Source: an uncultured Bacilli bacterium
Lineage (GTDB): Bacteria; Bacillota_I; Bacilli_A; RF39; UBA660
Direction of reading: 5' to 3'
Assembly: GCA_947629465.1 (NCBI GenBank)
Contig: CANRDZ010000001.1
Coordinates: forward strand, 1 to 46,793
Length of the DNA stretch: 46,793 nt
Positions 6,832-44,348 of this stretch are shown piece after piece. Position numbers and translations under genes: made by a program. Position 1 is the stretch's first letter. Each line of letters starts with the position of its first letter. The notes under the pieces were generated by a model, which was not told the DNA's origin, did not search any database, and was given only the letters and a program-made list of their open reading frames with translations.

Positions 6832-9529
6832 AAAAACATATGCCTAAAATAATCAAAATAAGTAAAACTATCATATTTAAATCATAACTTTTAGTATTAG
6901 GTACATCAAAAGTAAAATCTTTATTTTGAATTGGTTCATTAATTAGTTCTAAATTTATTTCATCATTTTCATTATTTATATCAAAATAAAGTCTTGTATT
7001 ATTTAATAAGTATCCTTCAGGAGCTTCAATTTCTTCTAAAAAATATTTGCCTATTATTAAATTATTTAAAGTAATATTTCCCAATTCATCAGTTTTTCCT
7101 TCATATATTAATGTTGCTTCATTTTCATCAGTTGTATATTTATAAATAGCTATTTTAGCATTTGGTAAAGGACTATTTGAATTATTTTTTTTATTAAAAA
7201 TTAATTTACCTTTTTTTAAATAATTTTTAATATTTATATTTACATTAACAATTTCTGTATATTGATCTTGATAAGATAAATTAATATCATACTTATTTTT
7301 ATCTAATAAATAACCATCGGGAGTTTCTTTTTCTATTAAATAATAATTGCCTAAATATAAATCATTTATTGCTATTTTACCATTTATTGTTTGATAGGTG
7401 TTTATTAAAGTGTCTTTTTTATAAATTAATGTATGATCTCCACTATAAATGTCTTCTTTTGCATATAATTCAAATATAACATTATCTAATGGTATATCAA
7501 GATATGAATATGTATTGTTACCTAGGTTTAATTCTTCTCCTAGTTTTTCAATTATAATATTTCCTTTAACTTCTTTATTTGCAAATTTTAATTCTAAAAT
7601 TGTTCCTAAACCATCAACGTTTTCTAATTTAGAATTTTTACTAATTTCAAATTTTAATGGTTCTTTATTCCATAGATAACCTGTAATTTTTTGATCAATT
7701 TCTTCTAATTGATATATTCCTCCTGTTAATTCATATGGTGTATATAAATAGCCATTAATATCTGTTTCATAAATACAAATATTTTCTAAATTAGGATAAG
7801 TTAATTGTTGACAAACATATTCATTGGTTTTTAGATTTTTAATTTTAAATTTTATTCCTTTTAAAGGAATATTTTTTTTAGTTATAGAATCAATTTTAAT
7901 TATTTTTAATCTTGCTTTTATTAGCTCATTATTGATTACTTTTTCTATATCATTAGATTTAATATTTATTGTAAAACAGGCAGCATTATTAGTAAATTCA
8001 CTTCCTTTAATTTGACAAACTTGATATGTCCCATAGGGTAGAGTTATACTAGCTTTTCCATTTTGATCTGTAATCATTTTACCTATAAGTTTATTATTTT
8101 TAGCTAAATAAATATTAAATTCAGCATTTGGTTCAATTTCAACAATTCCACTTTTGCCATCACCCTCTGTTTTTAATAGAGAAAATTTATATTTAATAAC
8201 TGGTTCTTTTGATAGAACTTTTAAAACTTCATTTTCATGTTGAATAAAAATTGTATACTCTGAATTATCAATTTTATATCCTTCGCTTGGTTTTATTTCT
8301 TTAACTATATATTTTCCATAGGGTAGAAGTATTGATTTTGCATAACCATTTTCATCAGTTATTAATTCTGATATTTTTTCTCCATTCATATTGTAAATAC
8401 CATAAATTGCTCCTTTTAAAGTTGCATCACCTTGAGAAATGTTTCCGGTTTCACTGTCGGTTTTATAAATTTCAATTGTACCTTCAATTAATTTATTGCT
8501 AATATCATATGATATTTTTGGTGTTGAAGAATTTATATTAAAAGAATAAATTTTATCACTTATTTTATAACCTTCAGGACAACTTATTTCTTTCATTGTA
8601 TAACTTCCATAAGTTAAGTTATCACATTTGCCATAACCATATTCATCAGTAGTTATTCTACATACTTCTTCATTGGCTTCATTATATATTCCAAAAACAA
8701 CATTACTAATTTTTTCTCCTTTTTGATTTGTTTTAGTAACTTCTACTTCGCCATAAACAACTTCTAAAAATATATTTACATAAACATTAGTTAGATCAGA
8801 AATACCAAAATAAGCTTGTTTTTGACTACCGTCTGCATAATAAAATTTAGTGTATTTATCAGTATAACTATTATTAACTAAATTAAAAGTTAAATCTTCT
8901 TTTGAATTAAATTTAATATATAAATTATTACCTTCAATTCGACTTTGAGAATTTAATTGATAGAGAATTCTAAAATTAGATAAAACATTATTTTCATCAG
9001 TTAATACTAGCTCTTCACCAACAATAATTTTATGACGAGTTAAATCAAATGAAGGTTTCAGTCCATGTTGATTAATAAGTCTATTTATTTCATCTCTTTC
9101 ATCTTTTAAATCAATAAATTTTCCTCCACCACCAATTTCAGTCCATACTTCATTTTGTTGACCTCCAATAGCTTCCCAAATCATAAGTTGGGTAGCCATT
9201 TTATAACGAAGAGTTTGATGATTTGGATAATCATAGCCATAATAAGCAATTAAATTAATTTTTCTTGTTAATTCTTCATCATAAGGTGAAGTAGTTTCTT
9301 TTAAATAATCAGATTCTTTATTTATGGTAATTCCTGGCTCAATACAATAGGTTGTATCACCATCAATTTTATAAGTATATAATTCTCCAGAATGCGGTTT
9401 ATCATTACCACCTCGACGATAAAAATAATAATCGGTAAAACTTTCGGTTATCTGGTATGCTTTAACTCCATTTGAACAACTAAATAATAAAATAAAAAAT
9501 AAAACAAAAAATAGAAAATTTTTTTTCAT
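6812..9529 (-). CDS. Cell-surface adhesin: N-terminal thioester domain (TED) plus about 6 SpaA/Cna-B-type repeat domains and a C-terminal sorting-like signal
   Basis: Signal peptide. TYCIEPG (thioester Cys) and ATQLMIWEA (TQxxIW Gln). Repeated ...KTD/N..G..L.GA.F.I....G......TD.NG......L.YG.Y...E...P.GY... modules. Tail DVPNTKS + hydrophobic helix + EKKEN. Confidence 0.8.
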   Translation of the reverse strand: MKKNFLFFVLFFILLFSCSNGVKAYQITESFTDYYFYRRGGNDKPHSGELYTYKIDGDTTYCIEPGITINKESDYLKETTSPYDEELTRKINLIAYYGYDYPNHQTLRYKMATQLMIWEAIGGQQNEVWTEIGGGGKFIDLKDERDEINRLINQHGLKPSFDLTRHKIIVGEELVLTDENNVLSNFRILYQLNSQSRIEGNNLYIKFNSKEDLTFNLVNNSYTDKYTKFYYADGSQKQAYFGISDLTNVYVNIFLEVVYGEVEVTKTNQKGEKISNVVFGIYNEANEEVCRITTDEYGYGKCDNLTYGSYTMKEISCPEGYKISDKIYSFNINSSTPKISYDISNKLIEGTIEIYKTDSETGNISQGDATLKGAIYGIYNMNGEKISELITDENGYAKSILLPYGKYIVKEIKPSEGYKIDNSEYTIFIQHENEVLKVLSKEPVIKYKFSLLKTEGDGKSGIVEIEPNAEFNIYLAKNNKLIGKMITDQNGKASITLPYGTYQVCQIKGSEFTNNAACFTINIKSNDIEKVINNELIKARLKIIKIDSITKKNIPLKGIKFKIKNLKTNEYVCQQLTYPNLENICIYETDINGYLYTPYELTGGIYQLEEIDQKITGYLWNKEPLKFEISKNSKLENVDGLGTILELKFANKEVKGNIIIEKLGEELNLGNNTYSYLDIPLDNVIFELYAKEDIYSGDHTLIYKKDTLINTYQTINGKIAINDLYLGNYYLIEKETPDGYLLDKNKYDINLSYQDQYTEIVNVNINIKNYLKKGKLIFNKKNNSNSPLPNAKIAIYKYTTDENEATLIYEGKTDELGNITLNNLIIGKYFLEEIEAPEGYLLNNTRLYFDINNENDEINLELINEPIQNKDFTFDVPNTKSYDLNMIVLLILIILGICFYEKKEN

Positions 9530-9560
9530 ATTTTTCCTCCTTCTAAATATATATATCGCT

Positions 9561-9617
9561 TAAAAAAAGCAATTTCCTTTTAAAAAATTAAATTTTTTAA
9601 GTAAAAAAAGCAATTTC
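9561..9617 (+). repeat. Two 16-bp direct repeats (taaaaaaagcaatttc) 41 bp apart in the divergent adhesin/clpC-like intergenic region
   Basis: Identical 16-mers at 9561..9576 and 9602..9617. Confidence 0.6.
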
Positions 9618-9696
9618 TTTGCGAATTTTATAGAGATTTTGCATATTTTTTTCCTAAAAAAAACATTATTAACATAGAATTGTAAGGGAGAATAAT

Positions 9697-11811
9697 ATGT
9701 TTAATAATTTTGGTATAGTAGGAGCAAATTTATTTAAAAAGGCCGAAGCTTTAAGATGTGAGTTACATCATCCTTATGTTGGAACTGAACATTTACTTTT
9801 AGCAATATTGGCAAATGATAAAGAAATGAGTCTTTATTTAAAAGAATATGGTCTTACTTTTGAACGATTTAAAAAAGAATTAATTTTAGTTGTTGGAAAT
9901 GGGACAAAGTCAAGTGATATAAATTTATATACGCCAATGCTTAAAAGAGTTATTAATACAGCTTTAGAAAATGCTAAAGAAAATAATAATGGAATTGTAA
10001 CTGCTAAACATTTAATTATTTCAATTTTAGAAGAAGGAGAAGGAATAGCTATTCGACTTTTAGTAAGTATGGGCATAGATATTGATGAAATATATGAAAA
10101 TTTAAATAAAAATAATAAATTAGTTAATAAAAAATTAGAGATTTATCAAACAGGAAATATATTAAATGATTTAGTCGATGATAATGAAACTGTGGTTGGT
10201 AGAGATAAAGAAATAAATTTAATAATTGAAACTCTTTTAAGAAAGAAAAAAAATAATCCTCTTTTAATTGGTGATGCAGGAGTTGGTAAAACAGCAATTA
10301 TTGAAGAATTAGTAAGAAGAATTAAAAGAAAAGAAGTACCAGAATTTTTATTTGATGCTAAAGTTGTTTCTTTAGAAATGGGTTCTTTAGTATCAGGGAC
10401 AAAATATCGAGGTGAATTTGAAGAAAAACTAACTAAAATAATAAAAGAACTTGAAACCGAAGATAAAATTATTTTATTTATAGATGAAATTCATGCGATG
10501 GTAAGTGCCGGAGGAGCAGAAGGGGCAATTACTGCTGGGGATATATTTAAACCAGCTTTAGCAAGAGGAAAAATTAAATGTATTGGGGCTACTACTTGTG
10601 AAGAATTTAATAAATTTTTTTCTGGTGATAAAGCTTTAATGAGAAGATTTGAAGTTATTAATATTAAAGAACCTAATAATTTAGAAACTAAAAATATTTT
10701 AGAAAAAGTTAAAGGTGAATATGAAAAACATCATAATGTTATAATTCCAGATAATATCCTTGATTTAATTATAAAATATACTGATCGATTTATAAAAAAT
10801 AAAAAGAATCCAGATAAAGCGATTGATTTTTTAGATTCAGTTTGTTCTAAAGTAAAAAATGAAAGTAATTATAATGAAGAAAAAAAGAAATTATATGAAA
10901 AAATTGAAGAATTAAAAATAAAGAAAAATGAATATGTAAAAAGTAATGATTATGATAATGCTTTAAATACATATAGTGAAGAATTATTAATTAGTAAAAA
11001 ATTAAAAGGTTATTTTAAAAATAAAAAATTAATTGTTAAAGAACAAGATGTAATTAAAGTTTTAGAAAATAAAACAGGAATGATTTTTACAAAAGATAAA
11101 TTAAATTTTTTAAATAATATAGAATTAGATATTAATAATATTTTATATAATTCAAGTAAATATATAAAAAGAATTAATAATTTAATTAAAGAAAATTTAA
11201 TTAATAAAAAAGGATTTTTAAAAATTTATTTAGAAGGTGGCATTGGTCTTGGAAAAAGTACAATAGCTAAAAAATATGGAACAAGTATTCCTAATGCTAA
11301 TTTTATTAGAATTGATTTAAAAGAGTATAAGACAATTTATGATATAAATAAACTTATTGGAACTACTCAAGGTTATATAGGATATAATGATGAACATTTA
11401 TTTACTAAATTAAAAAATAATAATTTTAATATTATATTATTTGATAATTATAGTGAAGCTCATGGAAATATTAAAGATTTAATAAAAGAAATATTAAAAG
11501 AAGGATATATTACTGATAATAAAGGGGAAAAAATATATTTTAATAATTCATTTATTTTTATTACAGATGATATAAGTTCAAATAAAAAAATTGGCTTTGC
11601 AAATAATAATTATGAAAATTATAATGAAATAGAAGATTTAGTTGATGGTGTAATAAAATTTGAAAGTTTAAATAAAGAAACATTAGTAAATTATTTAGAT
11701 AGTAAAAAAGTTTATAATAAAGATGAAATAATTGCTAACAGTAATTATGAAAAAGTAAATTATAAAAATTTAGATAAATTAATTAAAGAAAATAAATTAA
11801 TTAATAATTAA
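9697..11811 (+). CDS. ClpC-like AAA+ chaperone with a degenerate second nucleotide-binding module
   Basis: Clp_N repeats (HPYVGTEHLLLAIL; TAKHLIISILEEGEGIAIRLL). Canonical D1 (GDAGVGKTAI, ILFIDEIH, RRFE). D2 keeps GGIGLGKS, but Walker B reads ILFDNYSEAH and the C-terminal small domain is short (704 aa in total). Confidence 0.8.
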   Translation: MFNNFGIVGANLFKKAEALRCELHHPYVGTEHLLLAILANDKEMSLYLKEYGLTFERFKKELILVVGNGTKSSDINLYTPMLKRVINTALENAKENNNGIVTAKHLIISILEEGEGIAIRLLVSMGIDIDEIYENLNKNNKLVNKKLEIYQTGNILNDLVDDNETVVGRDKEINLIIETLLRKKKNNPLLIGDAGVGKTAIIEELVRRIKRKEVPEFLFDAKVVSLEMGSLVSGTKYRGEFEEKLTKIIKELETEDKIILFIDEIHAMVSAGGAEGAITAGDIFKPALARGKIKCIGATTCEEFNKFFSGDKALMRRFEVINIKEPNNLETKNILEKVKGEYEKHHNVIIPDNILDLIIKYTDRFIKNKKNPDKAIDFLDSVCSKVKNESNYNEEKKKLYEKIEELKIKKNEYVKSNDYDNALNTYSEELLISKKLKGYFKNKKLIVKEQDVIKVLENKTGMIFTKDKLNFLNNIELDINNILYNSSKYIKRINNLIKENLINKKGFLKIYLEGGIGLGKSTIAKKYGTSIPNANFIRIDLKEYKTIYDINKLIGTTQGYIGYNDEHLFTKLKNNNFNIILFDNYSEAHGNIKDLIKEILKEGYITDNKGEKIYFNNSFIFITDDISSNKKIGFANNNYENYNEIEDLVDGVIKFESLNKETLVNYLDSKKVYNKDEIIANSNYEKVNYKNLDKLIKENKLINN

Positions 11812-18231: not shown

Positions 18232-18705
18232 ATGCTATTTGATAATAACGATTTGGATTTTGCTCTTTTTAATTTATCTACCCCAAAAAGTATGCCAATG
18301 AATATGTCTATGAATATGACAAATATGTTTGATAAAAGTAATTTAAACATTTTATCAGCTAAAGAAGGATTTTTAAGAGGAAACATGTTTAAAGATGAAT
18401 ATAAACCATATAAAAATTTAACTTATATTGATATTAAACCTAGAAATGATAGAGAAGCAAAATTATTTAATGTAATGCAATATTCATTTGCAATAAATGA
18501 TATGAATTTATATTTAGATTTACATCCTGATGATATGGAAGCTATGGCATTATTTGAAGAATTTGTAAAAGAAGCTAAAGAAGCTAAAAAAGAATATATG
18601 GAACAATATGGACCATTAACTGTAACTAAAACTAAAGGTAATAAATTTAATTGGATAGATAATCCATGGCCTTGGGATGATTTAGGAGGTAATATATATG
18701 TTTAA
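18232..18705 (+). CDS. cotJB: Spore coat-associated protein CotJB with an N-terminal CotJA-like extension
   Basis: FAINDMNLYLDLHPDDMEAMALF and C-terminal NPWPWD are CotJB hallmarks. The N-terminal AKEGFLRGNMFKDEYKPY resembles the CotJA AL.KGT.W.DLY..Y motif. The stop overlaps the cotJC start (ATGTTTAA). Confidence 0.7.
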   Translation: MLFDNNDLDFALFNLSTPKSMPMNMSMNMTNMFDKSNLNILSAKEGFLRGNMFKDEYKPYKNLTYIDIKPRNDREAKLFNVMQYSFAINDMNLYLDLHPDDMEAMALFEEFVKEAKEAKKEYMEQYGPLTVTKTKGNKFNWIDNPWPWDDLGGNIYV

Positions 18706-18795
18706 ATATGTAAAACACACTAATTATCCAATAAATATATCTAAAAAAGATTTAAGAATGGCAAAATATTTGATCACTCAATTTGGTGGTGCTAA
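18698..18795 (+). CDS. cotJC: cotJC 5' segment (codons 1-32 plus two bases of codon 33), interrupted by the intervening element
   Basis: MFKYVKHTNYPINISKKDLRMAKYLITQFGGA matches the CotJC N-terminus (B. subtilis ...AKYLIEQYGGADGELAAALRY...). As it stands the frame runs into element DNA and stops at 18839..18841. Confidence 0.85.
18782..18795 (+). repeat. attL core: 14-bp direct repeat tttggtggtgctaa
   Basis: Identical 14-mer at 22983..22996. Both copies encode F-G-G-A of CotJC in frame. Confidence 0.85.
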
Positions 18796-18796
18796 A

Positions 18797-18808
18797 TGTA
18801 AAAGCGAT
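18797..18808 (+). repeat. Left element arm tgtaaaagcgat (inverted repeat of 22970..22981)
   Basis: Perfect 12-bp reverse complement of atcgcttttaca at 22970..22981. Each arm lies 1 nt from the core. Confidence 0.8.
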
Positions 18809-18815
18809 GTTTTTT

Positions 18816-20258
18816 TTATTCTTTGTAATAAATTTCGATAGTTTCATTTTTTTTGTCATAAACAATGTAATCAATTAATTCATGAATTACGGTATATTTT
18901 TTCATCATATCTATTTTTTCATCAATTAATAATTCATATACATTTTTAGCATTTATAGAAATGTTTTGTTCTTTAATTGTTTCATTATCTTTAGGCAATT
19001 TATTAATTTTTTCATTAATTTCTTTAATATTTTTTTCGGTTTGCAATTTGTTTTCTTTATATTCTTCTAATGTGTCAATTCCTTCTAAATATAAATTTTT
19101 ATATCTTACTAATTTTTCTTGTAAAATTTTTAAATTATTTTTTAAAATTTCTTTTTCATCTAAAAGATTATTTTCTATTTTTTTCTTACTAAAATTAATA
19201 TTAATAGGATTTTTATAATCTTTTTGAATTTGATTCAATATTGCTGGTATAATTTTTGAATAACTAATATAATGACTTTCTTCACAGCTACCATGAGAAT
19301 AACCTATACATTGAAGAGCATTTTTTTGTGTAGTTAGAGTAGATCCACAATTACTACATTTCACTAATTTACTAATCCAACTAAAGTTGCTAGTTGAAGT
19401 TGATTTATATAAATCCTTTTTCTTTAAAATTTGAGCTTGTATTTTATCAAATATTGCTTCATCAATTAAAGCTTCATGGTTTCCTTTTTTTAATATTCCG
19501 TTTTTTTCTTTAAATTTATAATCCCAACTTGATTTAGAGTTAGGTGTCCATAGAGTATAACCTTTATATACCGGATTTCTTAATATGTATTCAATTGTTC
19601 TTACTTCCCATTTATTATTATGAGTTGTTCTAATTCCTAAATTATTTAATTTTCTAGCAATTTCTTTAAAGCTAATTCCATTTTGATAATTATTAAATAT
19701 CATTTTTACTATTTTAGATGTCTCTTGATCAACGATTAATTGTTTATCGACCATTTTATAACCAAAAGGTGCTTTTGTTTGATATTCGCCTCTATTTGCC
19801 TTTTCAACCATGCCTTTTTTTACTTCGTCAGATAAGTTAAGAGAATAGTATTCGGCCATTGCTTCTAACATTGCCTCTAAAATAACAGAAAATTTATCAT
19901 CACCAAAATCTTCAGTAATAGATATTACTTCAACTTTACATTCTCTTTTAAGTAGTGATTTATAAACTATACTATCTTCACGGTTTCTTGCAAATCTATC
20001 TAATTTATGTACTAAAATAACATTAAATGGAGAAGTAGGTTTTATTTTTGCTGTAGCAATCATTTCCATAAATGCTGGCCTTTTTTCTGCTTTGCGACCA
20101 CTAAACCCTTCATCTTTATAAATGTATTTGGGATCTATTTCAATATTATTTTTTTTAGCATATTCTTTTATCGCTTTTAATTGTGCGTCAGGAGAGTATT
20201 CTGTTTGAGAATCTGTACTGACACGAATATATACTGCAGCAATTCTTTCTTCTTTCAT
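18816..20258 (-). CDS. Large serine recombinase (SpoIVCA/SprA-like)
   Basis: Resolvase catalytic domain AAVYIRVSTDSQ ... LVHKLDRFARN, recombinase domain, zinc ribbon CSNCGS...C..YSHGSC, C-terminal coiled coil. 480 aa. Confidence 0.9.
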   Translation of the reverse strand: MKEERIAAVYIRVSTDSQTEYSPDAQLKAIKEYAKKNNIEIDPKYIYKDEGFSGRKAEKRPAFMEMIATAKIKPTSPFNVILVHKLDRFARNREDSIVYKSLLKRECKVEVISITEDFGDDKFSVILEAMLEAMAEYYSLNLSDEVKKGMVEKANRGEYQTKAPFGYKMVDKQLIVDQETSKIVKMIFNNYQNGISFKEIARKLNNLGIRTTHNNKWEVRTIEYILRNPVYKGYTLWTPNSKSSWDYKFKEKNGILKKGNHEALIDEAIFDKIQAQILKKKDLYKSTSTSNFSWISKLVKCSNCGSTLTTQKNALQCIGYSHGSCEESHYISYSKIIPAILNQIQKDYKNPININFSKKKIENNLLDEKEILKNNLKILQEKLVRYKNLYLEGIDTLEEYKENKLQTEKNIKEINEKINKLPKDNETIKEQNISINAKNVYELLIDEKIDMMKKYTVIHELIDYIVYDKKNETIEIYYKE

Positions 20259-20287
20259 AAATTTCCTTTCTTTTAATTAAATTTTAT

Positions 20288-20320
20288 GCTACAATATATA
20301 CGAAAACCTATATATGTAGC
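20288..20320. promoter_or_regulatory. Imperfect palindrome gctacaatatata-N8-tatatatgtagc just upstream of the recombinase start
   Basis: 13/12-nt arms with one bulge. Overlaps an extended -10-like TGcTACAAT on the plus strand (20287..20295). Confidence 0.4.
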
Positions 20321-20369
20321 AATTTAATATATGCTATTTAAAAATTCGTTTAGTTTGGGTTTTCACTTA

Positions 20370-20456: not shown

Positions 20457-20506
20457 GCATAATATTTAATGATCCTAAGTATCCCGTGTGGACTTAGGAC
20501 ATTTTT
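20457..20506 (+). ncRNA. Candidate small hairpin RNA, copy 2 (stem UCCUAAGU/ACUUAGGA, loop AUCCCGUGUGG, U5)
   Basis: Hairpin at 20473..20499 followed by cattttt. Same-sense duplicate of the hairpin in the Abi leader. Overlaps the Abi stop codon on the opposite strand. Confidence 0.4.
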
Positions 20507-21450
20507 GATATATCGTGCCAATTTGTTGGGAAATTCATAGCATTTAATACATCATTTAAGGATATAGTATGTAGTTTTGATTGTATACTCATCATTCTAC
20601 TAAATAATTTGTGATGAAATTTATCATAATCTTCTTTAGGTAATAGTAATTTTAACGTAATTACGACAGCGAATAAATCATTTTTCCCAATTTCATATCT
20701 TCCATTATCAATTGGCAAATTCATCATTTGATGATATTTAGTGTCATTTATACTAGTGTAGGTTGGAAATTTATAATTATATAGTCTTTCATCATGCGCA
20801 CACAGATTTCTGGTTTTAGTTAAAATATTCAATAAACTATATAAATCTGCTTCATTAATATTTAATTCAATGGCTATTTTTGTTCTTTCACGTTGTTTCA
20901 TTAACCTATAAAAATTACAAATATCACCAAAGGATAATATATTAACTAATACCCATAAAGGAACGAAGCCGTAATTTATTATGTAATGATTGATATATTT
21001 GTTTTCAATATTGCTTGCTATATTTTTATTTATATTGCCTATTAAAGATTGAATATATTTAATATTTTTTTGTTTAGTATCATTATTTACGTTAACGTTT
21101 TCAAATGTTTCAAAATTATTCAATTTTAAATAATTATCATTTCCATATTGTTCGGAAAAGTAATATGCAATTAAAGCACGTAATGAATTTTCAAATTTTA
21201 AAATATATTCTAAAAATATATTTCTTAATTGCCTATCAAATTCATAAAGAGCATATATTTCATTAAAATTTGTTCCAAATTTGTAAATACTAGAATCTTG
21301 CTCATCTAAAAATAAATCTTTATATCCATTTATGATGTTGTAATAATTATTATGCAATAATATTTTTTTTGCTTCTTCCTCGTTTTCGAATATTATATTT
21401 CTTGATTTTAGTAAATTTATTTGCTCATCTATATCTTTAAATTCTTTCAT
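20494..21450 (-). CDS. Abi_2 family (AbiD/AbiF-like) abortive-infection protein, HEPN-type Rx4H motif
   Basis: N-terminus MKEFKDIDEQINLLKSRNIIF, NYYNIINGYKD, FGDICNFYRL, TRNLCAHDERLYNYKF (RNLCAH). The track ORF extends to a TTG at 21513, but the family N-terminus supports the ATG at 21450. Confidence 0.85.
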   Translation of the reverse strand: MKEFKDIDEQINLLKSRNIIFENEEEAKKILLHNNYYNIINGYKDLFLDEQDSSIYKFGTNFNEIYALYEFDRQLRNIFLEYILKFENSLRALIAYYFSEQYGNDNYLKLNNFETFENVNVNNDTKQKNIKYIQSLIGNINKNIASNIENKYINHYIINYGFVPLWVLVNILSFGDICNFYRLMKQRERTKIAIELNINEADLYSLLNILTKTRNLCAHDERLYNYKFPTYTSINDTKYHQMMNLPIDNGRYEIGKNDLFAVVITLKLLLPKEDYDKFHHKLFSRMMSIQSKLHTISLNDVLNAMNFPTNWHDISKMS

Positions 21451-21456
21451 AATAAT

Positions 21457-21498
21457 AAAAAAGTCTTCAGTCCACACGGGATACTGAAGATCACTTAC
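21457..21498 (-). ncRNA. Candidate small hairpin RNA / leader terminator, copy 1 (stem UCUUCAGU/ACUGAAGA, loop AUCCCGUGUGG, U6)
   Basis: Hairpin at 21464..21490, followed on the minus strand by cUUUUUUAUUAUU and then the Abi ATG. It lies directly downstream of the promoter at 21505..21533. Confidence 0.45.
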
Positions 21499-21504
21499 AA
21501 AGTA

Positions 21505-21533
21505 ATAATACAACTAATTTATGTGATTGTCAA
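21505..21533 (-). promoter_or_regulatory. Near-consensus sigma-A promoter TTGACA-17-TATTAT driving the hairpin leader and the Abi gene
   Basis: Minus strand: -35 at 21533..21528, -10 at 21510..21505. Confidence 0.5.
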
Positions 21534-21694: not shown

Positions 21695-22384
21695 TTACAA
21701 TCTTGTCCTCTTTTCTTTAGCAATACCAATAATTTTAACTGGTAAATTTGCTATTTGTTCTTTATTGTAAAAAGTTGGTAAGTATTTATCTTGATTATTT
21801 AAATTTAGGGGTATAAGAGTTATTCCAGATTCATTTATTGTTACATTTTTAAAAGTAGCATCAAAACCATTTACCATAACAGCACAGTCTTTATTATTTG
21901 CTTTTTCATAATCATTAACTTGTTCGAAAATAACAATATCATTTTCTTCATATTTTGGTGCCATGCTGTCTCCACTTATTTTTAAACCATAAAATTGTTT
22001 ACCACCTTTTAACCATTCTTTTGGTATATCTATATATTCTAATATATCTTGTTGAGCTTCAATAGCAATACCTGCTTTAATAGTTCCTAAAACAGGTATT
22101 TGTATAGTTTCATTAGTTGAAACAAGTTGAGTAGCATTATCAAAGTTTAAATCTTCAATTTTAACATCACCCGATTGTATAAGTAAATCGTTTATTGACA
22201 TTCCCATAGCGTTTGCAATTTTTTTTAATGTATCAACTGTAACTCTAACTGGTTTGCCTGTTCTAGGATCATAGCCTTTTTCAATGCTATCCAAATGAGT
22301 ATGGCTAATATCGCATTTTTTGGCAAAGTCTCTTAATGACATATTTCCACGAAATTTTTTGATATATTCACCTATATAATTCAA
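21695..22384 (-). CDS. CI/LexA-type repressor: XRE helix-turn-helix plus S24 self-cleaving peptidase domain
   Basis: MSLRDFAKKCDISHTHLDSIEKG (HTH). LKISGDSMAPKY (Ser nucleophile) and a downstream Lys (ATFKNV). TTG start preceded by GGGAGG at 8-nt spacing. Confidence 0.85.
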   Translation of the reverse strand: MNYIGEYIKKFRGNMSLRDFAKKCDISHTHLDSIEKGYDPRTGKPVRVTVDTLKKIANAMGMSINDLLIQSGDVKIEDLNFDNATQLVSTNETIQIPVLGTIKAGIAIEAQQDILEYIDIPKEWLKGGKQFYGLKISGDSMAPKYEENDIVIFEQVNDYEKANNKDCAVMVNGFDATFKNVTINESGITLIPLNLNNQDKYLPTFYNKEQIANLPVKIIGIAKEKRTRL

Positions 22385-22411
22385 ATAATATTCCTCCCTT
22401 TTTCATTAATT

Positions 22412-22440
22412 ATTGTAATTTATAATTTACAAAAAATCAA
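22412..22440 (-). promoter_or_regulatory. Putative repressor promoter TTGATT-17-TACAAT overlapping the palindromic operator TTGTAAtttataatTTACAA (22413..22432)
   Basis: Minus strand: -35 at 22440..22435, -10 at 22417..22412. 20-bp imperfect palindrome. A related half-site ttgtaaattat at 22457..22467. Confidence 0.4.
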
Positions 22441-22469
22441 TAATTTTAAATACTTTTTGTAAATTATGC

Positions 22470-22498
22470 TTGACATTAATTTTAAGTAAAAATAATCA
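22470..22498 (+). promoter_or_regulatory. Putative divergent promoter (perfect -35 TTGACA, weak -10 TAATCA) next to the operator half-site
   Basis: TTGACA at 22470..22475. The best -10 at 17-nt spacing is poor, so support is limited. Confidence 0.3.
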
Positions 22499-22686
22499 AT
22501 TAAAATTCAGGCATTTACTTAAAGACCAGATTAACCTCTTTTACTTTTTTATATTTTAAAATACTATTTAAACAAATTTTTCTATTTTTCATCTAGTTCT
22601 CAAATATGTGTCTTTATAAATCTACTAGAATTAGATAATAACTCAAATTAAACAAAAAACATAAGCTAATATAGGAGTTGAAACTC

Positions 22687-22797
22687 ATGGAATGTAAAAA
22701 AGAATTAAAAGTAATAGTTCATAATCCAGTTACCGAAGAAAAAGCATCAAAAAAAATAAGAGATATATGTGAATTATTAAAAAATATGGAGACTTAA
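22687..22797 (+). CDS. 36-aa micro-ORF (MECKKELKVIVHNPVTEEKASKKIRDICELLKNMET), candidate recombination directionality factor or relic
   Basis: AGGAG at 22673..22677, 9 nt before the ATG. The only RBS-supported plus-strand ORF in the element. Confidence 0.3.
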   Translation: MECKKELKVIVHNPVTEEKASKKIRDICELLKNMET

Positions 22798-22921
22798 TAG
22801 TATCAACTACATATTATACTATTACTGATTTAGATGGTGATAGAGAGTATATCAGCAAATAGAAATGATAAAATGTTTGTGTGGGCTTCTATGAATACAA
22901 AAAATATTAAATTATATAAAT

Positions 22922-22954
22922 AAGGTAGGGAAATAATTTCTACCTTGTTTTTTT
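22922..22954 (+). terminator. Rho-independent terminator just inside the right end of the element
   Basis: aaggtag...ctacctt stem with inner extension, followed by gtttttttatttg. Confidence 0.6.
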
Positions 22955-22969
22955 ATTTGAATTTTTACT

Positions 22970-22981
22970 ATCGCTTTTACA
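22970..22981 (+). repeat. Right element arm atcgcttttaca (inverted repeat of 18797..18808)
   Basis: Perfect 12-bp reverse complement of the left arm. Confidence 0.8.
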
Positions 22982-22982
22982 C

Positions 22983-23456
22983 TTTGGTGGTGCTAATGGC
23001 GAACTTGCAGCAGCAATGCGTTATTTTAGTCAAAAATTTACAATGCCTGATGATAAAGGTAAAGCCTTACTTAATGATATAGCTACAGAAGAACTTGGTC
23101 ATTGTGAAATGATTTGTTCAATGGTACATCAATTAACCAAAAATGCTACTATTAAAGAACTTGAAGAAGTAGGTCTAGCTTCATATTATGCTGATCATAA
23201 TAAAGGTATATATCCTATTGATGCAAGTGGAGTTCCTTTTACAGCAACATATTTTGCAGTTACAGCTGATCCAATTGCTGATTTAATGGAAGATATGGCA
23301 GCTGAACAAAAAGCTAGGGCAGTATATGAAAATTTAATTGATTTAACTGATGATGAAGATGTTTTAGCACCATTATTATTCTTAAGACAAAGAGAAGTTG
23401 TGCATTTTAATCGTTTTAAAGAATTATATGAATACTATAAAACAAAAGGATATTAA
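22983..23456 (+). CDS. cotJC: cotJC 3' segment (manganese-catalase-family spore coat protein), begins with the attR core
   Basis: In frame: FGGANGELAAAMRYFSQKFTMPD..TEELGHCEMI..GVPFTA..DPIADL..MAAEQKARAVYE..LLFLRQREVVHFNRF, colinear with B. subtilis CotJC. There is no start codon or RBS of its own at the junction. Confidence 0.9.
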   Translation, partial: FGGANGELAAAMRYFSQKFTMPDDKGKALLNDIATEELGHCEMICSMVHQLTKNATIKELEEVGLASYYADHNKGIYPIDASGVPFTATYFAVTADPIADLMEDMAAEQKARAVYENLIDLTDDEDVLAPLLFLRQREVVHFNRFKELYEYYKTKGY

Positions 23457-35635: not shown

Positions 35636-37534
35636 TTATTTTTCATCTTTTTCTTTACTTGAAGTTGTAGAATCAACTTTAGTTTGTCTTGTTTCTCCTG
35701 TTGCAATCCATCCTTCAAGTTTAGATTCAGTACTCCATTTATATCTATATTTAGTTACTTTTTTAGTAGTCTTAGTTGCATCTATAATTTTACTTGTACC
35801 TTTAACACATTTAGTTTCAGTACCTGAACCAACTTTACTATAACCACTAGGGCAAGTATATTGAGTATCTTTTACAGGATTTTTGGTTTCTTTTCCAGAA
35901 TATACACATTTATTATTGGCATCTTTTGTATATCCTGTAGGACAAGAATATTGAGTATTTTTAATAGGAGAAGTTGTACTTTCATAACTATAATAGCACT
36001 TGTCATTAATTAAATATTGATATGAATATGGACAAGAATATTTAATTTCTTCTCTTAAAGTACCATAAATTGTTGTTGTTCTAGAACATTTAGTATTTTC
36101 ACCACGTCCAGAAATTACATAGCCAACTGGACACTTATAACTTGTTTCAGCAGTGGCATTTTTAGTATCTGTTTTAGTAACAGTTTTAGTACATTTAGTA
36201 TTTGCACCTGAACCAGATGGATTATAACCAGAAGGACATTTATAAGTAGTAGTTTCTTTTGCAGGTACGTCTTTATAAGATGATACAGGACAATAATATT
36301 TATAATATGTTCTTGTACATCCTTTATAATCTGAACAAACATCAGTATATGATCCACTATATGTACATCCATTGTAAGTTTTTCCGTAATAGTATTCATA
36401 AGATTTATAAGTAGCTTTAGTTGAATAAATACGGCAATATTTTTCGTTAACTAATGTTCCTTCTGAACAAGTATAAGATGTTTCAGCAGTGGCATTTTTA
36501 GTTTCAGTTGAGGTTATAGTTTTAGTACATTTAGTATTTGCTCCTGAACCAGATTTATCATAACCATCAGGACAATTATAAGTTGTTGTTTTAGTTGCTG
36601 ATATAGTTTCAGTAGTTGTTTTAGCACATTTAGCTGATGCACCACTACCAATCATTGAATAACCACTATCACATTTATAAATAATTTCTTTTTTAGCATC
36701 TACATAAGATGAACTAGTCATGTAACATTTAGTATTTGCACCACTACCAGAAGCAGTATAACCACTAGGACATGTATAAACAGTAGTAGCAATTGGATCT
36801 TTTACATCACTATAATTTTTATAACATTTAGTATTTTCACCACTACCAGAAGCAGTATAACCACTAGGACATTTATATGTTACATTTTTAGTGGCATCAA
36901 TTGTGTTTTTATCACTTTTAACACATTTAGTACCATCTTTAATGTATCCACTAGGACAACTATATACAGTTTCATAATCAGTATATGATTGTTTAAATCT
37001 ATATTCAGTTATGAATTTTTCAGCATCTTCAGGATTTTGACAGTTGTTACCATTACATAATTGATTACATCCAAGTTCTTCTTCTGTTTTAGCAACTTCA
37101 ATTCCACATACAAGAGTAATAGTTAATTTATATTGACCATTTACATTTGTTACATAAGCATAACTAGCTTCAGTATCACAAGTTTGACCATCTTTATATT
37201 CCCAGGCAAATATTAAACCTTTATTTATTAATTCTTGTAAAGTATATTTTAATGTTTCACCTTCTTTAGGTAATTCACTAATTAAGAAATATTCTTTAAC
37301 AGTATCATGAAAATAACGATATCCTTCTAAATATTCTTTAGAATATGCTTTATTATTAGGAACAACAATATTGTTTCCATTATTATTGTTATTATTGTTA
37401 TTAAAATTTGTATCGTTATTTCTAGCAAATAACCAGATTATGAAGAAAATAACTAATGCAACTAGTAAAATAACAATTCCTTTTTTAATAACAGAACCCC
37501 AATTTATTGAAGTTTTAGTTTCTTCTGTATACAT
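35636..37534 (-). CDS. Membrane-anchored Cys-repeat protein (about 11 copies of Y-x-C-P-x-G-Y-x(n)-K-C)
   Basis: Start at the ATG at 37534, 7 nt after GGAGGT. One TM, an Asn-run linker, then repeats such as YKCPSGYTASGSGENTKC, YTCPSGYTASGSGANTKC, YNCPDGYDKSGSGANTKC, YSCPTGYTKDANNKC. Confidence 0.6.
   Translation of the reverse strand: MYTEETKTSINWGSVIKKGIVILLVALVIFFIIWLFARNNDTNFNNNNNNNNGNNIVVPNNKAYSKEYLEGYRYFHDTVKEYFLISELPKEGETLKYTLQELINKGLIFAWEYKDGQTCDTEASYAYVTNVNGQYKLTITLVCGIEVAKTEEELGCNQLCNGNNCQNPEDAEKFITEYRFKQSYTDYETVYSCPSGYIKDGTKCVKSDKNTIDATKNVTYKCPSGYTASGSGENTKCYKNYSDVKDPIATTVYTCPSGYTASGSGANTKCYMTSSSYVDAKKEIIYKCDSGYSMIGSGASAKCAKTTTETISATKTTTYNCPDGYDKSGSGANTKCTKTITSTETKNATAETSYTCSEGTLVNEKYCRIYSTKATYKSYEYYYGKTYNGCTYSGSYTDVCSDYKGCTRTYYKYYCPVSSYKDVPAKETTTYKCPSGYNPSGSGANTKCTKTVTKTDTKNATAETSYKCPVGYVISGRGENTKCSRTTTIYGTLREEIKYSCPYSYQYLINDKCYYSYESTTSPIKNTQYSCPTGYTKDANNKCVYSGKETKNPVKDTQYTCPSGYSKVGSGTETKCVKGTSKIIDATKTTKKVTKYRYKWSTESKLEGWIATGETRQTKVDSTTSSKEKDEK
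36144..36554. repeat. Two 75-bp related copies 336 bp apart within the Cys-repeat gene
   Basis: 36144..36218 and 36480..36554. They share an identical 23-nt start and a 36-nt end with one mismatch, with a divergent centre. Confidence 0.7.
36723..36872. repeat. Two 51-bp near-identical (50/51) copies exactly 99 bp apart within the Cys-repeat gene
   Basis: 36723..36773 and 36822..36872 (taacatttagtattt[g/t]caccactaccagaagcagtataaccactaggacat). One 33-codon repeat unit. Confidence 0.8.
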
Positions 37535-37548
37535 TATTATTACCTCCT

Positions 37549-39411
37549 TTATCTTGTTAATTCTTGATTTCCGCAAATGCTTTCAAATTCTGGACCAGCT
37601 AAAGCTGTATTTATGATTACTTGAACATCATGTATTTTTCCAAATTTAGCATTATAATCTATAAGAGCTAATTTGTAGTTTGCAAGTTCAAGTTCATAAG
37701 TGGCATTTAATCTATCTATTTCTGTTTGTGATAAACCATTAGTTATAACTGGTTTTACTGGTTCTTCTGGAATTATTGGTGTATTAAGTGGATATAATGG
37801 AGCAATAAATGAATTATATGCTACAAACCAATCAATATAATCAATAACTATGGCATCTTCATTGTAATCTTTATCATTTGTTAAAACTTTTTCTAAATCA
37901 ACATTTGAATATCCAGCAAATGATAATGCAAATATATTAATAAAATTAAATAATTTATCTTGATTTTCTTGAGTTGGATTTGCTAATACATTTTTAGCTA
38001 AACTTCCAAATCTAGTTAAAAATTTATCCATATCTGAACCATCTTTTGCAAAATATTGTAAAGCATCCATTTTGTTAATATCTTCAGTAGTTGGACTATT
38101 AAATAAGAAATTATTAACTATAGGATTAAAAGCAGTATTAAATGATTGAGCTAAATTACCATTATCATATTTATATAAATCTTTATTATCGATAGACATA
38201 ACTACTTTAACGATATCATCAATTGATGCACCTTCATAAAAGTTAGTAGCAGCAATTTTATAAGAACGATTTACAAAATCAACAGCATCTTCAGCAGTTA
38301 CAACATATAAATTAGTTGTATTTTCATAATCTTCTAAATAATCTAAATTAAAATCTTTACAATTAGCATATTTTTCAGCTTCAGGTCTATAAATTGCAAG
38401 TAAAGAATCAATAGTAGCTTTATCAAAATTTTGAACCATTAATACAGATGCATATTCACTATATCCTTTAGTAATTAAAGCTTCAACAGTTGGATCAAGA
38501 GTTTCTATTGGTTTTTCTGGAGTTTGATCATTTGGTGTAGTAAGATTATCGCTTTGAGTTGTATCTTTTTCAGAATTATCTTTTAAACTCTTAATTTCTT
38601 TTTTTATTTGAGAAAGATAACCAACTAAACTTGCAATAGTAGCAATTGTAACTATAGAAGCAGTTAAAGCTTTCCAATTCTTTTTAAACCAATTTGATAA
38701 TTTAGAATTTTCACTTTTTGTGTCTACTTTCTTTTTAATATTTTTGAATTCTTCCATATCATCTAAAACTTCGTCAAAAAGAATATTAAATTTATTTTCA
38801 GTTGCAGTAATAGTTTCAGCTAAATATTTTTTTCTATTTTCATCAGTTTTTGATTTTAAGAAATTCATTAAATTTTCACCAATATAGTGAATATCATCAA
38901 ATTTGTCTTCATATTCAGAAATTCCTTCTAATTGATAATTGATTTTTTCAATTTCATCTTCAGCTTTTTCTAAATCTTCACCTTTTAAAAGACGAATATT
39001 TCTTTGTAAATAATTAAGTCTTTTAGTTAGTTTAACTTTATAAGCATCTAAATCCTTTAAATCTTCTTCACTAATATCGTATTTTCTTTTTAATAAACTT
39101 AAATTATCTTTGTCTTCATTATTTAGTATACTAGCAATATCAGCTTTAATAGCAGTTGCTTTTTGATCACCAAATTTTAAATTTTCAAGTTCATCTAATT
39201 TATCAAGAATTTCTTGATAATTAAATAAATATGAAACTCTTTTTCTCATTTTTTCAAGTTGTTGAATAAGTTTATCAAGTTTTTCTAATTTTTTCTCCCT
39301 TTTTTTAGAATCGCTATTTTCAATTTCACTTTTTTGTTCATAAGCTGCAATTATTGTTTCGCTTAAATCGTTTGTATAAATTTCTAATTGTTTAATAAAT
39401 TCACTATTCAT
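37549..39411 (-). CDS. Bitopic membrane protein: about 260-aa cytoplasmic coiled coil, one TM, about 330-aa extracytoplasmic domain of unknown function
   Basis: Start at the ATG at 39411, 7 nt after GGGGGA. Heptad-rich Lys/Glu N-terminus, TM ALTASIVTIATIASLVGYL. The stop overlaps the RBS of the downstream Cys-repeat gene. Confidence 0.5.
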   Translation of the reverse strand: MNSEFIKQLEIYTNDLSETIIAAYEQKSEIENSDSKKREKKLEKLDKLIQQLEKMRKRVSYLFNYQEILDKLDELENLKFGDQKATAIKADIASILNNEDKDNLSLLKRKYDISEEDLKDLDAYKVKLTKRLNYLQRNIRLLKGEDLEKAEDEIEKINYQLEGISEYEDKFDDIHYIGENLMNFLKSKTDENRKKYLAETITATENKFNILFDEVLDDMEEFKNIKKKVDTKSENSKLSNWFKKNWKALTASIVTIATIASLVGYLSQIKKEIKSLKDNSEKDTTQSDNLTTPNDQTPEKPIETLDPTVEALITKGYSEYASVLMVQNFDKATIDSLLAIYRPEAEKYANCKDFNLDYLEDYENTTNLYVVTAEDAVDFVNRSYKIAATNFYEGASIDDIVKVVMSIDNKDLYKYDNGNLAQSFNTAFNPIVNNFLFNSPTTEDINKMDALQYFAKDGSDMDKFLTRFGSLAKNVLANPTQENQDKLFNFINIFALSFAGYSNVDLEKVLTNDKDYNEDAIVIDYIDWFVAYNSFIAPLYPLNTPIIPEEPVKPVITNGLSQTEIDRLNATYELELANYKLALIDYNAKFGKIHDVQVIINTALAGPEFESICGNQELTR

Positions 39412-39488
39412 AATATAATCCCCCTTCATGAATACGGCGTTTATGATACCATAAAACTCATCTATTGTCAATAGTAACTTCTTAATCC

Positions 39489-43278: not shown

Positions 43279-43436
43279 GTAATCCCTCCTTAAAAATTCA
43301 TATTAATTTTATCAAAAAATATGTTATAGTGCAAGTAATTCTTGTATTTATATTAATTTTTACTAAATGTTAATAATTCCTTATCATTCGACATAATATA
43401 TAGAAAAATATATTTATAATGTAATTGGTGAGTAAT

Positions 43437-44348
43437 ATGAGAAAATTTAAAACTCGTAAAAAAATAAATATGTTTATTATTTATATAGGATTATTTTTAG
43501 TTAGTATGGGGCTTTCAATAAAATATTTATATAGTAATAATTTGATTAATAATAATACTATTATTGATTATCTTATTGCTGATAATTTTTCTTATGAAGA
43601 TATTAATAGTGTTGATTTTTTATTAAAATATGCTCTTAATATAAATATAATTAAAGATAAAGAAACAAATATAGAAGATGATATTAGTAAGCCTTTAGAA
43701 GTTCCTTTAAAACCTGATACTTCTTTAAAACCTATTGTTTATATTTATAATACTCACCAAGAGGAAAAATACGAAAGTCCTTATTTAGGAGCATATAATA
43801 TTGCTACTAACGTATTATTAGCAAGTAAAATGTTAAAAGAATATTTGGAAGATGAAGGAATTGGAAGTTATGTTGAAGAAGAAAATATTACTAATATGAT
43901 TCACGCTCTTAATTTAAAATATAAAAATAGTTATGAAGTTAGTAGAATGCTTTTAGAAAGGAGAAAAAGTGAAATAGATACTTTAAAATATTTTATAGAT
44001 TTACATCGAGATAGTAGTGCTTATTCGAAAACAACGGCCCAAATTGATGGGGTTAGCTATGCAAAAATTTTATTGGTGGTTGGATTAGAACATGATCAGT
44101 ATGAAATAAATTTAGAAAAAGCAAATATTATTGCTTCAAAAATTGAAGCTTTTAATCCATTATTATTTAGAGGAATTTCTAAAAAAAGTGGAGAAGGAGT
44201 AAATGGTATTTACAATCAAGATTTTGATCCTAATACTTTATTAATTGAAGTAGGAGGACAATATAATAATATTAGTGAAATAAATAATACGCTAAAAGTT
44301 CTTTCTAAAATTTTAGCTGAATTTATAAAGGAAAATGAAAATGAATAA
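43437..44348 (+). CDS. spoIIP: Stage II sporulation protein P (SpoIIP amidase/endopeptidase)
   Basis: VYIYNTHQEEKY, IDLHRDS, ILLVVG, LLIEVGG motifs. The track ORF starts at a TTG at 43425; the ATG at 43437 is preferred. Confidence 0.85.
   Translation: MRKFKTRKKINMFIIYIGLFLVSMGLSIKYLYSNNLINNNTIIDYLIADNFSYEDINSVDFLLKYALNINIIKDKETNIEDDISKPLEVPLKPDTSLKPIVYIYNTHQEEKYESPYLGAYNIATNVLLASKMLKEYLEDEGIGSYVEEENITNMIHALNLKYKNSYEVSRMLLERRKSEIDTLKYFIDLHRDSSAYSKTTAQIDGVSYAKILLVVGLEHDQYEINLEKANIIASKIEAFNPLLFRGISKKSGEGVNGIYNQDFDPNTLLIEVGGQYNNISEINNTLKVLSKILAEFIKENENE

Follow-up and report, generated by a model that had tools for sequence, protein, structure and literature searches.

The 46,793-nucleotide stretch of DNA analyzed herein (the window), which derives from an uncultured Bacilli bacterium (GenBank assembly GCA_947629465.1, contig CANRDZ010000001.1), carries a 4201-bp insertion that splits the spore coat gene cotJC at the codons for F29-G30-G31-A32. 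When all observations are considered together, the region from 18782 to 18808 is very likely the left attachment site (attL) of an integrative gene-intervening element, with the corresponding right attachment site (attR) located at approximately 22965–23014. Related elements break cotJC at the same codons, and a GG dinucleotide at the start of the Gly31 codon is the likely crossover point.

Paired Direct and Inverted Repeats Bound the Insertion

Direct reading and a scripted search both reveal that the 14-mer TTTGGTGGTGCTAA resides at 18782–18795 and 22983–22996, that these are its sole two copies on either strand of the window, and that identity extends 0 bases further to the left or right. 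Just inside the two copies are the arms TGTAAAAGCGAT (18797–18808) and ATCGCTTTTACA (22970–22981), which are perfect reverse complements (12/12) and occur nowhere else in the window. When the ends of the element are joined, they form a reconstructed attP of ATCGCTTTTACA-c-TTTGGTGGTGCTAA-a-TGTAAAAGCGAT, a 40-bp sequence whose midpoint falls between G18788 and G18789. These are the first two nucleotides of cotJC codon 31, and the core as a whole reads TTT GGT GGT GCT AA, which encodes F29, G30, G31, and A32 and begins the codon for N33. To the left of the core, the likeness between attL and attR goes on imperfectly (CAaTTTGG... versus CAcTTTGG...).

Chance 14-mer repeats are present in this 24% G+C window, with 197 pairs lying within 0.5–20 kb, and the att pair is the only 1 of the 197 to have perfect 12-bp inverted arms just inside it. 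Moreover, the composite of a 14-mer pair with perfect 12-bp inverted arms was observed in 0 of 200 first-order Markov simulations, wherein the best arm match was 11/12. The combination of direct and inverted repeats is not due to chance.

Removal of the element in silico produces a 185-aa Mn-catalase/CotJC open reading frame (ORF; Pfam Mn_catalase, E=5.9e-52), and the joined protein is 96% identical to an intact protein (P0121). As with other gene-intervening elements, the coding sequence of a sporulation gene is interrupted and its reading frame is restored by precise removal of the insertion. In the integrated state, the 5′ fragment is extended by element sequence to a 47-aa ORF that stops at 18841. 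A related rabbit-gut metagenome-assembled genome (MAG) carries a syntenic locus (L164) with an intact cotJC in the gene order FtsK, PedC-like, CotJB, CotJC, DUF2179, RimP, and NusA, and the nucleotide alignment of the window to this locus breaks exactly at 18798 and 22980. This locus is the syntenic empty site.

The perfect arms cover half-site positions 9–20, and conservation among related elements reaches approximately position 22. Given this conservation and the 25-bp length of the half-site in the solved LI integrase structure, the functional attP is probably nearer 45–50 bp than 40 bp. The same 25-bp length (PMC3783163) was borrowed to delimit the approximate extent of attL. An initial annotation of the window, made from its letters alone, had described the 14-bp core, the 12-bp arms, and a 40-bp palindromic attP, and had placed the core within conserved FGGA codons. 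The core and arms are exact and unique, and the codons are indeed F29–A32 of a gene that is uninterrupted in the syntenic genome. The geometry of arms and center in the proposed palindrome is likewise exact, although its 40 bp probably fall short of the functional site.

Related Elements Share a GG Register

Homologs of the recombinase encoded by the element, with 40–93% identity, were collected by scans of a genome collection and of IMG/VR. This clade is hosted by Clostridia, Bacilli, and Erysipelotrichia-like MAGs, isolates (Massilimicrobiota timonensis f30 for L019 and Petroclostridium sp. X23 for L039, for instance), and viral contigs. Junctions with cotJC fragments were called by a sequence-motif (regex) scan of 98 assessable loci. 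In 39 of the 98, the recombinase stop codon is followed immediately by a cotJC 5′ fragment in the opposing orientation; at least two of these regex matches (L012 and L088) are not cotJC. A 3′ fragment on the same strand occupies this position in another 24. The cotJC junctions of the clade all break at the same (F/Y)GG codons. These sequence patterns indicate that the clade is site-specific for the (F/Y)GG motif and inserts in both orientations.

To compare half-sites, junctions were registered on the Gly31 codon, and the element-side sequences were written outward from the center. This gave 29 nonredundant P′ and 30 P half-sites, the two sets being drawn from different elements in opposite orientations, and they conform to one consensus, (G/C)NCCnnAtTGCAwTAGgtATA, which can also be written (G/C)NCC..A.TG.AAAAGCGAT. 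The first position is G or C with an information content of ~1.8 bits. Agreement between the P and P′ profiles is 2.89 at a relative offset of 0; a shift by 1 lowers it to 0.76 and 0.59, and the next-best value is 1.44.

Four elements, including that of the window, have both ends available. The identity shared by attL and attR (bases left|right of the center) is 14 bp in the window (7|7), 11 bp in L004 (7|4), 9 bp in L019 (8|1), and 8 bp in L044 (7|1). The GG lies within the shared core in 4/4 of these paired elements, and thus the attP and attB partners of each carry the identical nonpalindromic central dinucleotide. In L019 and L044, identity stops exactly at the second G.

These data also bear on whether the 14-bp repeat might be a target-site duplication and the 12-bp arms the terminal inverted repeats of a DDE-type transposon. 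The order of direct repeat, inverted repeat, element, inverted repeat, and direct repeat is formally like such an arrangement. However, a transposon of this type predicts a repeat of fixed length and varied targets, and neither is seen: the direct repeat varies among relatives (14, 11, 9, and 8 bp) and is asymmetric about the center, and the identical codon is used by ~60 independent elements. Furthermore, unintegrated copies hold the core between the arms as in an attP site, the direct and inverted repeats of the window are parted by a 1-nt spacer that differs between the ends (a versus c), and the ORFs of the element include no transposase, its only recombinase being a large serine recombinase. 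We therefore reject the transposon reading, which we consider extremely improbable.

Where the recombinase gene does not adjoin cotJC, its downstream sequence was searched without bias for the best palindrome, which revealed eight free (unintegrated) attP sites (L011, L015, L017, L020, L082, L087, L090, and L103), among which L087 has 15/15 arm matches. All eight are centered on GG/CC inside a GGNGG-type core. In addition, Bajarodcaudo virus 3, a complete circular phage genome, encodes a 43%-identical integrase and has similar inverted arms around GGAGGTAC, with a site midpoint that by manual count is half a base off GG.

From the window alone, every position of the core is compatible with attL and attR, and a large serine recombinase could in principle exchange strands at another dinucleotide of the 14-bp core, such as the TG at 18787–18788. 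The family data make this very unlikely. A 1-bp shift of the center (relative offsets of −2 and +2) reduces the profile score from 2.89 to −0.19 and 0.08, respectively, the shared identity in L019 and L044 is bounded on the right at the second G, and the eight free attP sites center on GG/CC. Because the half-site offset test, the paired cores, and the free attP centers agree, the GG is supported as the center of the site and as the likely crossover dinucleotide. This is the position, 18788–18789, that the initial annotation had named as the geometric center. Its further proposal that the nonpalindromic GG gives the reaction polarity gains support from family members in both orientations relative to cotJC, and its assignment of the site to a serine recombinase from the fact that the repeats flank an element with a complete enzyme of this type.

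Over their inner 10 bp, the attP half-sites look like the B half of attB (CnCCATATTG), which would be expected were the recombinase domain to read both. For the distal attP motif, the highest scores against the B half fall at shifts of −5 and −6 (1.41 and 1.29). In LI integrase, whose attP half-site spans 25 bp, the zinc-domain motif occupies positions 16–24 in attP and 11–19 in attB, and attB is the shorter of the two sites (PMC3783163).

Recombinase and Cargo of the Element

The coordinates of the attachment sites and of the genes and motifs within and around the element are collected in Table 1. The stop codon of the recombinase gene is 8 nt from the P′ arm, and ~60 related loci have the same placement at the recombinase end. 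The protein carries Resolvase (PF00239, E=7e-29) and Recombinase (PF07508, E=1e-22) domains, and its zinc ribbon (Zn_ribbon_recom, PF13408) scores 24.5 bits, just below the 25.3 cutoff. Residues R12, S14, and C301/C304/C317/C325 are invariant across 27 homologs. The protein belongs to PHROG 95 (integrase, E=1e-106), and its matches in PDB are the N-terminal catalytic domain of TP901-1 and the C-terminal domain of A118/LI integrase (4KIS). Judging from these matches, the recombinase is architecturally complete, with an N-terminal catalytic domain bearing the serine nucleophile, a recombinase domain, and a zinc-ribbon domain.

Table 1. Positions of attachment-site components, genes, and regulatory motifs in the window
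Feature	Position	Strand	Basis or remark
cotJB, upstream gene of cotJ operon	18232..18705	+	Pfam CotJB PF12652, E=1.4e-26
cotJC 5′ fragment, codons 1–32 + 2 nt	18698..18795	+	tblastn / ORF listing
attL, approximate extent	18764..18813		Chromosomal B half-site (to G18788) and element P′ half-site (from G18789); half-site registration
14-bp core copy in attL, TTTGGTGGTGCTAA	18782..18795	+	
Predicted crossover GG in attL	18788..18789	+	attP midpoint; family offset test, paired cores, and free attP centers agree
P′ arm, TGTAAAAGCGAT	18797..18808	+	Half-site positions 9–20
Large serine recombinase, 480 aa	18816..20258	-	Pfam, PHROG, PDB, invariant residues
Conserved palindrome TTGCTACATATATAGG...TATATATTGTAGCA upstream of recombinase gene	20287..20322	-	Unique in window
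AACCCAAACTAAAC box upstream of recombinase gene	20348..20361	-	Conserved in relatives
Abi_2 abortive-infection cargo gene	20494..21513	-	Pfam PF07751, E=1.2e-47; PHROG 2158
CI/LexA-like repressor (helix-turn-helix + S24 peptidase)	21695..22384	-	Pfam PF00717 + PF01381; PHROG 4
Operator-like inverted repeat between repressor gene and rightward ORFs	22408..22481		28-nt arms, 82% complementary, 18 nt apart
AACTCAAATTAAAC box then CATAAGCTA, reading AC-17 nt-CATAnnnTA; sigma-K-like promoter match	22640..22668	+	Conserved in window and L004–L007
Conserved 36-aa micro-ORF, MECKKELKVIVHNPVTEEKASKKIRDICELLKNMET; candidate recombination directionality factor	22687..22797	+	Homolog distribution, dN/dS
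Intrinsic-terminator-like hairpin + T-run just inside attR	22918..22950	+	
attR, approximate extent	22965..23014		Element P half-site (to G22989) and chromosomal B′ half-site
P arm, ATCGCTTTTACA	22970..22981	+	
14-bp core copy in attR	22983..22996	+	Central GG at 22989–22990
cotJC 3′ fragment, rest of codon 33 to stop	22997..23456	+	tblastn aa 26–185 at 22974–23453; Pfam on joined ORF

In addition to the recombinase, the element encodes an Abi_2 protein, a CI/LexA-like repressor, and several small ORFs. The hairpin just inside attR may insulate the cotJC 3′ fragment from transcription of the element. The closest complete relative, L004 (5754–9469), is 3.7 kb in length, has a 93%-identical recombinase, and shares the same ends and the same micro-ORF, but its cargo differs, comprising a PemK/MazF-like toxin and two unknown ORFs, with the repressor reduced to a 29-codon remnant. 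Cargo turns over rapidly around a fixed recombination module.

A 42-nt inverted repeat (20470–20511 and 21452–21493), which is 83% complementary and includes the perfect GC-rich 12-mer CCCGTGTGGACT/AGTCCACACGGG, brackets nearly the whole Abi_2 gene. This repeat is absent upstream of the recombinase gene in L004–L007, and it could represent a cassette boundary or an invertible segment.

A Conserved Micro-ORF Is a Candidate Directionality Factor Gene

Toward its attR end the element carries, on the other strand from the recombinase gene, a 36-aa micro-ORF that is kept in the four closest elements (L004–L007) despite their differing cargo. A hidden Markov model of this family matches 24 of 104 clade loci, versus 0 of 56 control loci whose serine recombinases are unrelated, and the matches are always on the opposite strand, 0.2–5 kb upstream of the recombinase gene. 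Pairwise ratios of nonsynonymous to synonymous substitution rates (dN/dS) are 0.10–0.26 in 8 of the 9 computable pairs, with the comparison of the window to L007 giving 0.58 (L004 versus L006 was not computable). These ratios indicate that the micro-ORF is under purifying selection.

Family members are ~33–51 aa in length, have the consensus ..ELKVIV.NPPTEEQK..IIK.IE.YL, and occur only beside recombinases of the cotJC-type clade, with examples at L004 5909–6016 (−), L087 5722–5832 (−), and L011 622–744 (−). Profile searches of Pfam, PHROGs, and PDB with the micro-ORF returned nothing credible, and an exhaustive phmmer search of 1.84 billion representatives identified only two true homologs, each of 35 aa. 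The scarcity of homologs among gene calls could arise because gene finders are likely to under-call such short ORFs.

Upstream of the micro-ORF, all five elements (window and L004–L007) carry AAC(C/T)CAAA(C/T)TAAAC-N6-CATAnnnTA, and several distant members of the clade keep CATAnnnT or the CAAACTAAA box. The spacing AC-17 nt-CATAnnnTA matches the B. subtilis sigma-K consensus. The 14-nt box AAC(C/T)CAAA(C/T)TAAAC occurs just twice in the window, ahead of the recombinase gene and ahead of the micro-ORF. Also upstream of the recombinase gene is a 36-nt palindrome in which ~80% of columns are identical across the same five diverged elements, with divergent flanks. A sigma-70 scan for a promoter of the recombinase gene gave 42 sites versus 50 expected in shuffled sequence and thus no excess, and a CATAnnnTA match near this gene is not conserved in L004/L005.

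The pattern of a micro-ORF and its upstream motif has the look of a developmentally expressed directionality factor, comparable to SprB and CD1234. We therefore speculate that the 36-aa protein founds a micro-protein family that serves as the directionality factor of the cotJC-specific integrase clade and is expressed from a sigma-K-type promoter, which would confine reconstruction of the coat gene to the terminal mother cell. This proposal is a tentative one that we regard as possible rather than probable. If it is true, then minimal elements of 3.7–4.2 kb with antiphage or toxin cargo (Abi_2, MazF-like) would ride the germ line of gut spore formers at no cost to the spore.

It might instead be supposed that the element is an inactive fossil whose sites and recombinase no longer recombine, given that its cargo is down to 4.2 kb and that the excised form was not found in the JGI metagenome and IMG/VR contigs searched. 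There is only a slim chance that this is so. The recombinase ORF is full-length with all residues that are invariant in the family, the arms and core remain perfect (12/12 and 14/14), the micro-ORF shows signs of purifying selection, and 93%-identical recombinases reside in elements with different cargo, which points to recent activity or turnover.

Proposed Mechanism and Control of Excision

We propose that the 480-aa recombinase would bind each att site as a dimer, with attP being a pseudopalindrome and attB being the conserved coding sequence ...TQ(F/Y)GG(A/P)(N/D)GE.... Strand exchange is predicted to occur at the 2-bp GG that opens the second Gly codon (18788–18789 and 22989–22990). This dinucleotide is nonpalindromic and fixed by the genetic code (Gly = GGN), and would therefore provide a stable and polar crossover point. 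Integration would split cotJC just ahead of its first metal-binding glutamate, and recombination of attL with attR is expected to yield the exact 185-aa ORF and to release the element as a 4.2-kb circle in which the 40-bp palindromic attP is rebuilt. Large serine recombinases cut both strands in concert, leaving a 2-nt 3′ overhang at the central dinucleotide, and act in one direction unless a directionality factor is present. Excision would presumably need such a factor here too, for which the product of the 36-aa micro-ORF is the best candidate. The sigma-K-like motif ahead of this micro-ORF would then direct excision in the terminal mother cell, as occurs for skin, SPbeta, and gin.

A SpoIIP homolog is encoded at 43425–44348 (+; Pfam E=1.5e-46). 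Because SpoIIP and cotJB/cotJC are present, the evidence indicates that the rabbit-gut host is an endospore former. In B. subtilis, cotJ is expressed in the mother cell.

Several observations weigh against this proposal in whole or in part. The micro-ORF was detected in just 24 of the 104 clade loci, and the sigma-K-like −10 element is just 4 nt from the Shine–Dalgarno sequence, such that a transcript starting there would be nearly leaderless. The 5-bp zinc-motif shift expected for attB is only weakly visible, in that the −6 peak of the B′ half (0.83) is no better than its value at +2 (0.98). The best match to the joined CotJC in the protein collection is 96% identical, with no intact protein at 100%. 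A degenerate 34-nt pattern of the attP junction had 0 matches when searched against JGI metagenome and IMG/VR contigs. This result is uninformative regarding excision because mother-cell circles would be scarce and the source samples belong to ENA rabbit-gut data. Likewise, no circular mini-elements were found among short contigs by terminal overlap. Finally, cotJC is dispensable for spore formation in B. subtilis (PMC12122855), and thus excision need not be selected.

The most substantial of the competing explanations accepts the sites as described but holds that the element is an SOS/phage-type integrative remnant or resident island, for which cotJC is a conserved and dispensable landing pad. 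Any excision would then follow cleavage of the repressor rather than sporulation, and cotJC would stay broken in spores. Retention of a CI/LexA-type repressor with helix-turn-helix and S24 domains, beside an operator-like inverted repeat and divergent small ORFs, fits this type of control rather than a developmental one. Moreover, related recombinases are present in 25–50-kb viral contigs and in one complete circular phage genome, and loss of cotJC causes no obvious defect in B. subtilis (PMC12122855). However, L004 has lost nearly all of its repressor gene yet keeps the recombinase, the att sites, and the micro-ORF, along with ~50 nt of conserved sequence upstream of the micro-ORF that includes AC-17-CATAnnnTA. 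In addition, different recombinases strike cotJC at three separate conserved motifs, and developmentally excised elements characteristically target mother-cell genes (PMC4191935, PMC5595907). On balance, we consider SOS-type control to be somewhat unlikely, and a gene-intervening element that would rebuild cotJC on excision remains the explanation we favor for the locus as a whole.

Comparison with Known Gene-Intervening Elements

Gene-intervening elements with serine recombinases, a group that takes in skin, SPbeta, vfbin, vrin, and gin, are known in sigK, spsM, spoVFB, spoVR, and gerE, and att sites composed of short direct and inverted repeats are established among them (PMC4191935, PMC5499854, PMC5025042, PMC5595907). 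The skin element of B. subtilis, which carries SpoIVCA and resides in sigK (with skinCd and its recombination directionality factor CD1234 in C. difficile), is likewise prophage-derived and interrupts a mother-cell sporulation gene. As in the cotJC element, its att site is a short direct repeat with flanking inverted repeats (PMC5025042), and its cargo varies such that only the recombination module is shared (Galperin preprint; PMC5025042). In contrast, the target in the window is cotJC, which codes for a structural or enzymatic coat protein rather than a regulator, the element is 4.2 kb compared to 14–48 kb, the recombinase belongs to a distinct clade, and developmental timing of its excision is hypothetical.

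The SPbeta system interrupts spsM and uses the serine integrase SprA with the small directionality factor SprB, which is expressed from a sporulation-specific promoter to rebuild the gene (PMC4191935, PMC5499854). A similar pairing of a small ORF with a serine recombinase is proposed here for the cotJC element. However, SPbeta is an active phage of 134 kb, and the micro-ORF product, a putative factor, shows no recognizable likeness to known protein families or solved structures. The gin element in gerE of B. cereus ATCC 10987 is a nonphage element that encodes the serine recombinase GirC and the small accessory factor GirX, and its recombination occurs inside a 9-bp shared sequence within a small coding region (PMC5595907). 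It spans 28.6 kb and has three recombinase genes, whereas the cotJC element has one recombinase gene and defense-type cargo (Abi_2).

The recombinase also matches Listeria A118/LI integrase, whose attB lies inside comK, in domain architecture and in the alignment of its C-terminal domain to 4KIS. The LI system similarly has a pseudopalindromic attP with a central dinucleotide and an attB within coding sequence (PMC3783163). Sequence similarity between the two proteins is very low (E ~2e-4), and the 5-bp zinc-motif shift of LI is weakly recoverable in the cotJC sites.

Interruption of cotJC itself was already known. A preprint (bioRxiv 10.1101/2021.11.22.469490) that cites Abe et al. 2013 names cotJC among the targets of insertions related to phages or transposons, and a skin-like element has been reported in cotJC of Laceyella sacchari (bioRxiv 10.1101/2022.02.25.481979). 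These earlier elements, phage-like or skin-like, share the target gene. Our literature searches turned up no account of where cotJC elements recombine (att sites and crossover), of the clade to which their recombinases belong, or of any accessory factor. The element is one more case of an established kind, and its main points of interest are the cleanly definable family-wide site and the candidate micro-protein. C. difficile phi027 adjoins a cotJC-like gene, and no C. difficile phage is among the 30 matches listed from a search of a phage collection.

Possible Other Targets and Additional Observations

The locus adds a compact case, resolved well through its relatives, to the elements that interrupt sporulation genes. 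The clade uses as attB a short coding motif that is highly conserved, and a Gly codon would fix its crossover dinucleotide; sites of this kind are stable in gut genomes of the Clostridia, Bacilli, and Erysipelotrichia-like groups. Together with its attP consensus and both insertion orientations, the clade could supply orthogonal integrase/att pairs that are ready to be tested. Regarding annotation, fragments of cotJC beside such recombinase genes should not be labeled as pseudogenes.

The gene is split two or three times in other loci (L044 9795–12983, L070 9576–16777, and L030 9663–16404). Besides the GG site, these extra insertions are at approximately aa 62–65, within the EELGH metal-binding motif, and at approximately aa 136. 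In L044 and L070, the extra insertion brings a distinct large serine recombinase of its own (517 and 560 aa, respectively). cotJC is a multi-hotspot target.

In one sub-branch of the clade (L045, L055, L076 at 9446–10522, and L081), a complete gene with its own stop codon has its 3′ end ~20 nt from the recombinase gene. The product of this neighboring gene has a weak SpoIID-domain match and ends in ...ILTQYCDGRNVTCPGWMTV, and the local sequence TQYCDG is similar to TQYGGPDG, the target in cotJC. Based on this resemblance, the sub-branch may have switched to a look-alike site in another sporulation-type gene.

Elsewhere in the window, two adjacent ORFs at 35636–39471 (−) code for proteins of 646 and 640 aa that have near-zero family matches, with a weak Sushi-repeat match in one, and these may be surface proteins.

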